Source: a candidate division WOR-3 bacterium
Lineage (GTDB): Bacteria; Hydrothermota; UBA3072
Assembly: GCA_023131835.1 (NCBI GenBank)
Contig: JAGLZA010000025.1
Coordinates: 5,923-69,922 of the forward strand
Length of the DNA stretch: 64,000 nt
Reading direction: 5' to 3'
The translations under genes were made by a program, and so were the position numbers. The notes beneath the pieces were generated by a model that searched no databases, was not told the origin of the DNA, and was given only the letters and a program-made list of their open reading frames with translations. Below are positions 24,217 to 25,827 of this stretch, one piece after another (position 1 is the first letter of the stretch; each line of letters opens with the position of its first letter).

Positions 24217-24535
24217 TTATTATGAATATGTAAAAAACTCCTTTAAATCATCAAACAAGATTCTATCCCATTTTTTAAGTAATTCCTCATCCTTACTTAC
24301 GTTATGAAAGTAATTACCGTATTCAACCTGATCTATGTGTAACTCTACATCATAGTAATCCTTCTTTGGGTGGAATAGTACGTGAACCTTTTTGGTGCCG
24401 TTACTATAATACCGTTCCGCTACTTGGATTCCTTTCTGAAGAATTGTGAAACCTTTGCTTTCTAAGGTAGTAAGGAATAGATCTAAGCGGTTTTTAGGGA
24501 TCTTATGGATGATTTTCATTTTTTGCTCCTTTCAT

Positions 24536-25807
24536 CTTATCTACACAATGAAACCCCTTCCGAAAAGGATGGAATGAATTGTGTCCTCCATGCAATTGTT
24601 GTTAATACTCTCAAATCATGAATCTTTGCATATTGTGTTAACCTAATCCCTGTTCTGGCTTCAACTACCGATACTCTCTCAACATTCTGCTGCATTCCAC
24701 CTACATATGTTCTACCGTATTTAACATGATTAACCAGCGTCCCACGTTTCAATCCGTATGATCGAGTACTACCGTAAGGTTTGCGTATACCACCCTTACT
24801 TGGTTGTAAATAATGCAATTGACGTCTATGAAATCTTAATGGTATCCAATAGTATATTCCCTTCTCGGTTGGCTCTATAGCACCTGCAACACCCGCTGCT
24901 AATACCCATGCATCAACTCCATGCGACTCAAATGTCTTCTTAGATTTCTGTGGTGTCTTCTTTTGGTGAAAGAAATCTCTTAGTTTCTTCGTTACGTAAC
25001 CACCAAATATGGTTAGTTTAAATCCCATACTTCTAATCTGATTATAGAACCATTTCTTCCCTACCTCTAACGGTGAAAAGTTACGGTTCCATCTTCTTTT
25101 ACCTTTCTTTGTTACTGCTTTCACGTCCTCAACTACCACGTTAGTTATCGGGATTACCTTCCGTATTTGTTCTAATATCCGTAACTTTGCAGCCCATCTC
25201 GCACGTGTTGATGGTGGTAAGAAATTTCTACCACTTAAATGGTTAGATCTACATTTTCTTCTACGGCAATTTCTGTGTCTCCTTGCTTTACGCATTCCCC
25301 TCCGTTGTTCAATCGCTTTCTTTACGTGCGTTACTGCTTCTGACATACCATTCAAAACAGTCTCCTTAGTTCCCGTAACCGAATAACCTTCAAACTTACT
25401 TCCAGGATCTATCCCCATTACAATAGTCTGGTTATTCGGTTTAATACTGTACGTCAAGATCACGCAAAAAATCCCTAACTTATTCCAATATGGTCTAGCC
25501 TTACCAGTCTTCAGTAATAACCTTGCCTTAGCTGGAGTGGTAGGCATCAACACTTTCCTATCCTTATCCAATACGGGTATTCTCATATTCTTTCCCTCCG
25601 TTTATCACAACGGGTTTAATTCCTCTTCGACCTGCAACGAAAGCTTAGTCATACGACATCGGACTTGGTGCATCCAGAAGTGGCACCGACTAGAGGAGTA
25701 TCGGAACGTTCTTATAGCTTTCGTCGCGGCTACTTGACAAGTGGTCTAGTCAACCGTTTAGTCTCGCTTAGCCATTCGCAAGCCCCTATGTTAGGGGGGT
25801 GGTTGAC
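24536..25807 (-). mobile_element. Non-autonomous IS200/IS605-superfamily IsrB (OMEGA) element
   Basis: One end is GTCAACCACCCCCCTAACATAGGGG; the other is a hairpin encoding the FIPSFSEGVS tail; no tnpA; removing 24536-25807 restores the flanking reading frame. Confidence 0.85.
24537..25586 (-). CDS. isrB: IsrB RNA-guided nickase (IscB relative without HNH)
   Basis: PLMP domain (LMPTTPAKARLLL), RuvC-I GIDPGSK, Arg-rich bridge helix, RuvC-II VVEDV, RuvC-III HGVDAW; 349 aa; no HNH or zinc-finger insertion. Confidence 0.88.
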   Translation of the reverse strand: MRIPVLDKDRKVLMPTTPAKARLLLKTGKARPYWNKLGIFCVILTYSIKPNNQTIVMGIDPGSKFEGYSVTGTKETVLNGMSEAVTHVKKAIEQRRGMRKARRHRNCRRRKCRSNHLSGRNFLPPSTRARWAAKLRILEQIRKVIPITNVVVEDVKAVTKKGKRRWNRNFSPLEVGKKWFYNQIRSMGFKLTIFGGYVTKKLRDFFHQKKTPQKSKKTFESHGVDAWVLAAGVAGAIEPTEKGIYYWIPLRFHRRQLHYLQPSKGGIRKPYGSTRSYGLKRGTLVNHVKYGRTYVGGMQQNVERVSVVEARTGIRLTQYAKIHDLRVLTTIAWRTQFIPSFSEGVSLCR

Positions 25808-25827
25808 TTTCTAGTACTTCTTTTCTT
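25587..25827 (-). ncRNA. omegaRNA: scaffold about 25807-25587, 5-prime guide from 25808 upward
   Basis: GTCAACC pairs with GGTTGAC (25755-25749), CCCCTA/TAGGGG hairpin, GC-enriched structured 220-nt leader upstream of isrB. Confidence 0.8.

Follow-up and report, generated by a model that had tools for sequence, protein, structure and literature searches.

A probable IS200/IS605-type IsrB-omegaRNA element and its empty sites in a cold-seep virus lineage

The window analysed here is a 64,000-nucleotide stretch of contig JAGLZA010000025.1 (positions 5,923 to 69,922; assembly GCA_023131835.1, filed under a candidate division WOR-3 bacterium), itself part of a ~180-kb assembly scaffold from a cold-seep metagenome. 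On its minus strand, a mobile element of 1,272 bp at 24536..25807 carries the gene for the nickase IsrB and the scaffold of an omegaRNA, the RNA partner of such enzymes in OMEGA systems (for obligate mobile element-guided activity). From one end to the other it consists of the omegaRNA scaffold (25587..25807), isrB (24537..25586) and a hairpin at the far end, its limits being set by the joints of empty sites in relatives. We consider it likely that this is a non-autonomous element of the IS200/IS605 type, with an HNH-less IsrB and its omegaRNA as sole cargo, residing in a ~180-kb tailed virus of cold-seep sediment whose host is probably archaeal. It is a well-resolved natural case of a known element type, not a new type.

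The isrB open reading frame (ORF; 24537..25586, minus strand) encodes 349 amino acids (aa) with a PLMP domain, an arginine-rich bridge helix, a split RuvC domain and a TI domain. RRXRR is its sole Pfam family (1.4e-36, residues 3-160), and by far its best match among solved structures is DtIsrB, PDB 8DMB (E 9.2e-44, residues 2-335); structures of IscB align only to residues 1-117 and 105-156, in the N-terminal portion with PLMP and RuvC-I. No HNH domain was hit in Pfam and a protein of 349 aa leaves no room for one, in agreement with the first-pass annotation, which had called the ORF an HNH-less IsrB from the sequence alone. In the PLMP motif, VLMPTTPAKAR aligns with PLMPTTPRKAR of DtIsrB. 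The RuvC segments GIDPG, VVEDV and ESHGVDA have VDPG, TEDV and ETHANDA as their counterparts in 8DMB, and the catalytic residues, namely the D of GIDPG, the E of VVEDV and the H and D of ESHGVDA, are all kept. The counterparts of R315 and Q318 in DtIsrB are R323 and Q326 (GIRLTQY versus GKRIGQF), where R323 reads T2 and G3 of the target-adjacent motif (TAM) and Q326 reads A4; both TTGA and ATGA targets are nicked by DtIsrB (PMC9581776). Judged by its sequence, the protein is a complete IsrB with an NTGA-reading pocket. It resembles DtIsrB (from Desulfovirgula thermocuniculi) in its length of about 350 aa, in combining PLMP, RuvC, bridge helix and TI without HNH, in keeping the TAM-reading Arg and Gln, and in having an upstream omegaRNA with a 5' guide and an NTGA-type TAM. 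It differs in its low identity to that protein, its scaffold of ~220 nucleotides (nt) as against 262 nt, its location in a virus genome and its activity, which here is predicted.

Upstream of isrB, a permissive Rfam scan of 24400-26100 placed the HEARO family (RF02033, gathering score 83) end to end, model positions 1-211, on 25615-25807 of the minus strand with 63.3 bits (E 5.2e-12). We equate HEARO with what is today called the IsrB/IscB omegaRNA. Position 1 of the model coincides with G25807, the end of the element, exactly where the scaffold had been said to start with GTCAACC. The search with omegaRNA models that the first-pass annotation had recommended thus gave a whole-model match that lies below the gathering score. 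The match extends over the closing stem of HEARO (GUCAAC...GUUGAC) and its first hairpin; several internal stems are shorter. At gathering thresholds the Rfam scan gave no match in the window, and the other permissive hits (U6atac, CRISPR-DR9, raiA-hairpin and DLEU2), which were weak and overlapped coding sequence, were taken as chance. Beyond the part covered by the model, 25587-25614 holds a conserved terminal hairpin (CCGTTgtgataAACGG) followed by a Shine-Dalgarno sequence just before the isrB ATG, which brings the scaffold to ~220 nt. In a 16-sequence alignment, RNAalifold predicted 20 pairs, 17 of them with compensatory changes.

The start of the scaffold also marks the limit of conservation. 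On the minus strand the sequence across it reads ...AAAGCAAGAAAAGAAGTACTAGAAA|GTCAACCACCCCCC..., the G of GTCAACC being 25807 and the sequence directly before it ...AGCAAGAAAAGAAGTACTAGAAA. In IMG/VR and GTDB genomes, the sequence upstream of IsrB homologues is conserved from GTCAAC on and unrelated before it, and two of these loci (L083 and L084) have one scaffold in common and different upstream flanks; the position proposed for the guide is borne out by this pattern. The omegaRNA guide would accordingly be the interrupted-gene sequence immediately 5' of the scaffold (AAGAAAAGAAGTACTAGAAA, 25808..25827, minus strand), with a length of 20 nt assumed from the 20-nt guide of DtIsrB (PMC9581776). 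Allowing up to three mismatches, the guide matches nowhere else in the window.

At the other end, the isrB stop codon TAA (24539-24537) is followed by a single base, G (24536), and then by ATGA (24535-24532). The insertion thus lies between ...CTAGAAA and ATGA, 19 nt upstream of the stop codon of a conserved 75-aa virus gene. Joining 25808 to 24535 gives GTA CTA GAA AAT GAA AGG AGC AAA AAA TGA (VLENERSKK*), and this TGA overlaps the ATG of the downstream 99-aa gene (24220..24519, minus strand), which is kept in relatives L096 and L099 with 79% aa identity. Shifting either element boundary by one base destroys the fit to the empty site. There is neither a target-site duplication nor a terminal inverted repeat, the empty site being simply the two flanks joined, and the two ends of the element are not inverted copies of each other. 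The element has a GC content of 41.6%, the window one of 34.3%. When the reconstructed 75-aa product was used as a protein query, 26 intact homologues came up, 66-82 aa long and mostly of 75 aa, one of which ends in ...RKEVLENERSKK and so has exactly the VLENERSKK* terminus that the first-pass annotation had predicted from the rejoined frame. The coordinates given there for GTCAACC, for the guide upstream of it and for the ATGA one base past the isrB stop were all correct.

The remnant of the 75-aa gene at this locus (25808..26016, minus strand; ATG at 26016-26014) is broken twice. Apart from the insertion, an alignment with L096-L099 revealed that the A run at 25976-25982 is one base too long (A7 on the minus strand here, A6 in L098), and this +1 frameshift leaves a 32-aa product ending at 25918. 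The old frame enters the element and stops at 25791-25793. As the same sequence occurs in assemblies of several samples, the frameshifted gene is probably a genuine pseudogene rather than the result of a sequencing error.

Relatives that lack the element were sought in reads and contigs, as the first-pass annotation had suggested, and were found with the junction that it predicted. Among contigs of eight related runs over 23500-27000, many skip the element, all with the 25808|24535 junction length. Ten contigs of related viruses from cold seeps, with an uninterrupted 75-aa gene, all read GAAA|ACGA AAGG, with nothing duplicated or missing, and are thus one base apart from the predicted GAAA|ATGA AAGG. 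The change is a synonymous one (AAC for AAT) at TAM position 2; AAT makes up just 61% of Asn codons here, so that AAC is unremarkable. All ten also carry one to six mismatches to the guide, with one to three in L096, L098 and L121. At the level of reads, further ACGA variants were present, one of which, in X5/X6/X7, matches at least the seven TAM-proximal guide bases, and there were two ATGA empty alleles with five to six guide mismatches as well as one ATAA allele. A joint of 24535 to 25808 in X6/X7 was considered as an ATGA empty site and discarded: the consensus of its loose end, ...TTTCGT|TTTC, corresponds to ACGA.

Since near and distant relatives alike carry C, the C of ACGA is probably ancestral, and the T that completes ATGA would have arisen in the lineage that later received the element. 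The sampled siblings, with ACGA and one to six guide mismatches in all ten, look like poor targets, and homing into them is doubtful. The earlier suggestion that this IsrB targets element-free sibling genomes therefore holds only in part: such siblings exist, and one of the empty-site contigs (L121) shares its sample of origin with the window's assembly scaffold, but every one of the ten lacks the T of the TAM. Other searches brought up no empty site. With 7 kb around the site as query, blastn matched none of 50,697 phage records; the IMG/VR relatives of the neighbouring resolvase, at best 51% identical, have no further flank gene in common with the window and yielded no empty site; and scans of Joint Genome Institute (JGI) metagenome contigs and IMG/VR with a degenerate pattern from the 75-aa gene found nothing.

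The ATGA at 24532..24535 (minus strand), just outside the element on the isrB-stop side, is the predicted TAM and also, as TCAT on the plus strand, the presumed target of the transposase TnpA. Just inside it, a subterminal imperfect hairpin (24543..24584) overlaps the last ~15 codons of isrB and holds a conserved motif (GGGGTTTC, 24550-24557, minus strand). As a DNA fold this hairpin is weak by energy (z about -1.1), and the hairpin predicted at the omegaRNA end has a z of -2 to -2.8; the stop-end hairpin and its GGGGTYTC motif recur in homologues with altered stem sequences. Where GGGGTYTC was found, at the foot of the terminal hairpin, ATGA mostly lies 21-23 nt beyond it, and ATGA occurs near the isrB stop in 15 of 16 homologues. 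Such spacing is the end geometry of IS200/IS605 elements, with TCAT as the predicted insertion target and ATGA as the predicted TAM.

Sister elements extend this picture to other sites. The closest IsrB proteins share 88, 87 and 82% identity with this one, and their elements, with ~85-89% DNA identity, have other flanks; the three occupy other sites, each with a different 5' flank and an unrelated guide. One of them (L118/L119) lies upstream of a gene homologous to the adenine methyltransferase gene of the window (87% nucleotide identity to 20279-20477) and, because of this neighbour, is evidently at another locus of a related virus. A second (L117) directly precedes a gene for a long protein, and the third (L116) sits on a 70-kb contig of a related virus that shares another window gene and also carries TnpB. 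ATGAA directly follows the element end in L117 and L118/L119; in L116, where the boundary is uncertain, ATGA overlaps the isrB stop and another ATGA lies 25 nt downstream. At four independent sites, therefore, ATGA (TCAT on the other strand) adjoins or overlaps the end of the element, and with the Arg and Gln readers conserved, the NTGA-type TAM of the first-pass annotation is supported. To judge from these copies, the family moves between sites. No Y1 HUH transposase (Y1_Tnp) was found among the 134 ORFs of the window (best 25 of 30 families), nor among 73 ORFs within 3-5 kb of 14 homologous loci, and the elements are therefore regarded as non-autonomous.

Two side observations concern further mobile copies. 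In run X1, a 107-nt contig with a depth of ~40 follows the omegaRNA end (25770-25807) up to 25807 and then continues into sequence that the window lacks (CTACACCCTTGC...), which suggests a further copy with the same end elsewhere in the same sample. TnpB-type genes (OrfB_IS605 plus a Cas12f1-like TNB domain) occur at 1863-3086 of L116 and 91-546 of L081, within 2-3 kb of sister or related IsrB elements on viral contigs; by this gene content, viruses of this group collect more than one kind of OMEGA element.

From characterised systems (PMC9581776; review PMC13565253) we infer how such an element might behave. Transcription from the interrupted gene would yield an omegaRNA whose 5' 20 nt derive from the flank. 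The IsrB-omegaRNA complex would then recognise the uninterrupted site, in which the guide match is followed by ATGA, and nick its non-target strand, while the occupied site would be spared, as the guide match there runs into GTCA, the scaffold start, which fails to supply the G at TAM position 3. Recombinational repair of the nick from an element-bearing copy could restore the element after excision or copy it into a co-infecting genome. For first arrival and for excision, a Y1 (HUH) TnpA would have to act in trans, inserting 3' of TCAT on the plus strand. Because ACGA is found in all sampled relatives, the simplest history would be that a synonymous C-to-T change created ATGA in this lineage and that the insertion came afterwards. 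As a current role, restoring the element after excision is more plausible than spread into the sampled relatives, since these carry ACGA and seed mismatches.

Several results weigh against reading the locus as an active IsrB-omegaRNA element. The HEARO match stays below the Rfam gathering score, and a scan for bacterial-type promoters found nothing above background for a guide-containing transcript. Run X7, labelled RNA, left most of the element interior without depth and gave only a handful of diverged contigs of low depth at the isrB-start end, and a search for RNA runs containing the element listed none. Every one of the ten contig-level empty sites combines ACGA with guide mismatches. No same-strain excision product was seen in assembler contigs, which drop rare variants. 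Finally, the virus carries genes of a DNA-hypermodification type, described below, and the modification might block RNA-guided nicking of its own type of DNA, by this IsrB included.

These points bear on how the element should be interpreted, and three other accounts were weighed against ours. That mis-assembly of a repeat placed the element in the viral scaffold is extremely improbable. Other samples do have contigs that break off close to the element, whose ends recur in variant contigs of related elements; yet the identical sequence, element included, is present in the assemblies of four cold-seep samples (SAMN18200500-503), the junctions are 100% identical in all four as well as in a Logan contig spanning both (L091, L092), and depth is even across the junctions in runs X1-X3. 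A more serious, though still unlikely, account is that the element is a recent accidental passenger, dropped in once by a host TnpA and neutral to the virus, whose IsrB never acts on viral DNA. The insertion in one strain only, with every other relative empty, would fit such an event, as would a target gene that was already dead by frameshift and hence tolerant of disruption, an element GC content above that of the genome, the presence of the nearest cellular IsrBs in methanogen genomes and the DNA-modification genes of the virus; there is also a precedent in the insertion at ATGA in phage Mic1 (PMC11237433). Against it stand the intact ORF, catalytic residues and omegaRNA, and the sisters with 82-88% identity at other loci of related viruses (L118/L119, L116); because of these sisters, the family appears to persist and move within the virus lineage and not to stem from a single accident.

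The opposite account, in which IsrB serves mainly as a gene drive or weapon that nicks co-infecting element-free relatives, with ACGA as selected escape variants, strikes us as improbable. Its appeal is that the guide equals the empty-site sequence, that the same sample also contains a relative free of the element (L121), and that TAM position 2 is changed in all empty-site contigs, and synonymously so; non-restorative homing, or localized marker exclusion, has moreover been discussed as a concept that awaits validation (PMC13565253). However, ACGA occurs in near and distant relatives (from L098 to L099 and L125) and so looks ancestral rather than the result of repeated escape, the codon AAC is nothing out of the ordinary at 61% AAT, and two read-level ATGA alleles are empty. 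A nickase, besides, provokes recombination less strongly than an enzyme that cuts both strands. We give little credence to the T/C difference at TAM position 2 as the footprint of a drive, in which genomes with a guide match and ATGA would have been converted or eliminated and siblings without the TAM would have persisted. If it were such a footprint, it would be the first field evidence that an OMEGA nickase brings about non-restorative homing from one co-infecting virus to another. A non-autonomous IS200/IS605-type element of a mobile family, kept within this virus lineage, is the reading that we prefer.

Set beside known systems, the locus is familiar in its parts. IsrB, HEARO and the omegaRNA, the NTGA TAM, the link to IS200/IS605 and IsrB elements in virus DNA were all known: K2IsrB, from a viral metagenome contig, has been characterised (PMC9581776), and a host IsrB element was found inserted at ATGA in gp49 of the cyanophage Mic1 (PMC11237433). 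As in Mic1 gp49 and K2IsrB, an IsrB element lies in a virus genome beside an ATGA/NTG motif and interrupts a virus gene; unlike them, the virus here is probably archaeal, the empty site is found in many natural relatives, and sisters occupy other loci of the lineage. The element shares with IS200/IS605 elements that carry TnpB or IscB the absence of target duplication, a tetranucleotide that doubles as TAM and a flank-derived guide (review PMC13565253); the subterminal hairpins predicted here may be a further resemblance. In contrast to them, no TnpA was found in the element, in the 64-kb window or in 3-5 kb around the 14 loci, and IsrB is a nickase, not a double-strand nuclease. The homing endonucleases of T4-like phages, whether free-standing or intron-borne, offer another parallel as selfish nuclease genes directed at the allele of a related virus that lacks the element, but they recognise it by protein and not by an RNA guide with a 4-nt motif, and homing is in our case a prediction.

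What this locus adds is an occupied site together with many empty sites in coexisting relatives and sister copies elsewhere in genomes of the virus lineage, and a polymorphism that coincides with the very motif on which transposase and nickase should both depend. It makes two questions testable, namely whether an OMEGA nickase can home between co-infecting viruses and whether a single TAM base decides susceptibility. It also provides a compact IsrB/omegaRNA pair (349 aa and a ~220-nt scaffold), apparently of archaeal-virus origin, with a predicted ATGA(A) TAM.

The rest of the window bears on the virus and its host. Its DNA polymerase PolB is closest to those of haloarchaeal tailed viruses (26% identity). 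A FlaK/PibD-type prepilin peptidase (9095-9700, minus strand), combining Peptidase_A24 with the archaeal C-terminal Arc_PepC_II, is an unusual cargo that recurs with 77-85% identity in related viral contigs; a homologue search with this peptidase returned only relatives from similar viral contigs and no host taxon. The nearest cellular IsrBs, at 63-65% identity, belong to Methanocalculus, Methanoculleus and other Methanomicrobiales. Because of the affinity of PolB, the FlaK-type peptidase and these IsrBs, an archaeal host is likely but not proven, and the archaeal virus named in the first-pass annotation is to be read with the same reserve.

The genes of DNA-hypermodification type, ADDT apart, lie at 35493-36155, 45592-46740, 53730-54761 and 54751-56133. 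They encode a thymidylate-synthase-like protein, two proteins of the radical SAM type, of which one has SPASM, and an amidoligase-like protein; the set also includes a Pfam hit to ADDT, the amino acid:DNA transferase family. A tyrosine integrase is encoded at 13252-13881. One window ORF matches a Tad2-like (Thoeris anti-defence 2) domain at 2.6e-08, and two ORFs match YopX. Just upstream of PolB, a 304-aa ORF (30665-31579, minus strand) gave a weak, sub-threshold match to DEDD_Tnp_IS110 (E 1.5e-4). It is kept in L096 with 72% identity and, being conserved there, may be a RuvC-like viral protein rather than a transposase. Small genes of the DUF559/MTES_1575 family, with a Vsr-like endonuclease fold, are found in relatives at 5662-5967 of L096, 488-844 of L124, 65-361 of L125 and at the ends of L120 and L121. 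Their presence and position vary around the same gene block, and they look like free-standing mobile endonuclease genes in a region that is a mosaic hot spot.

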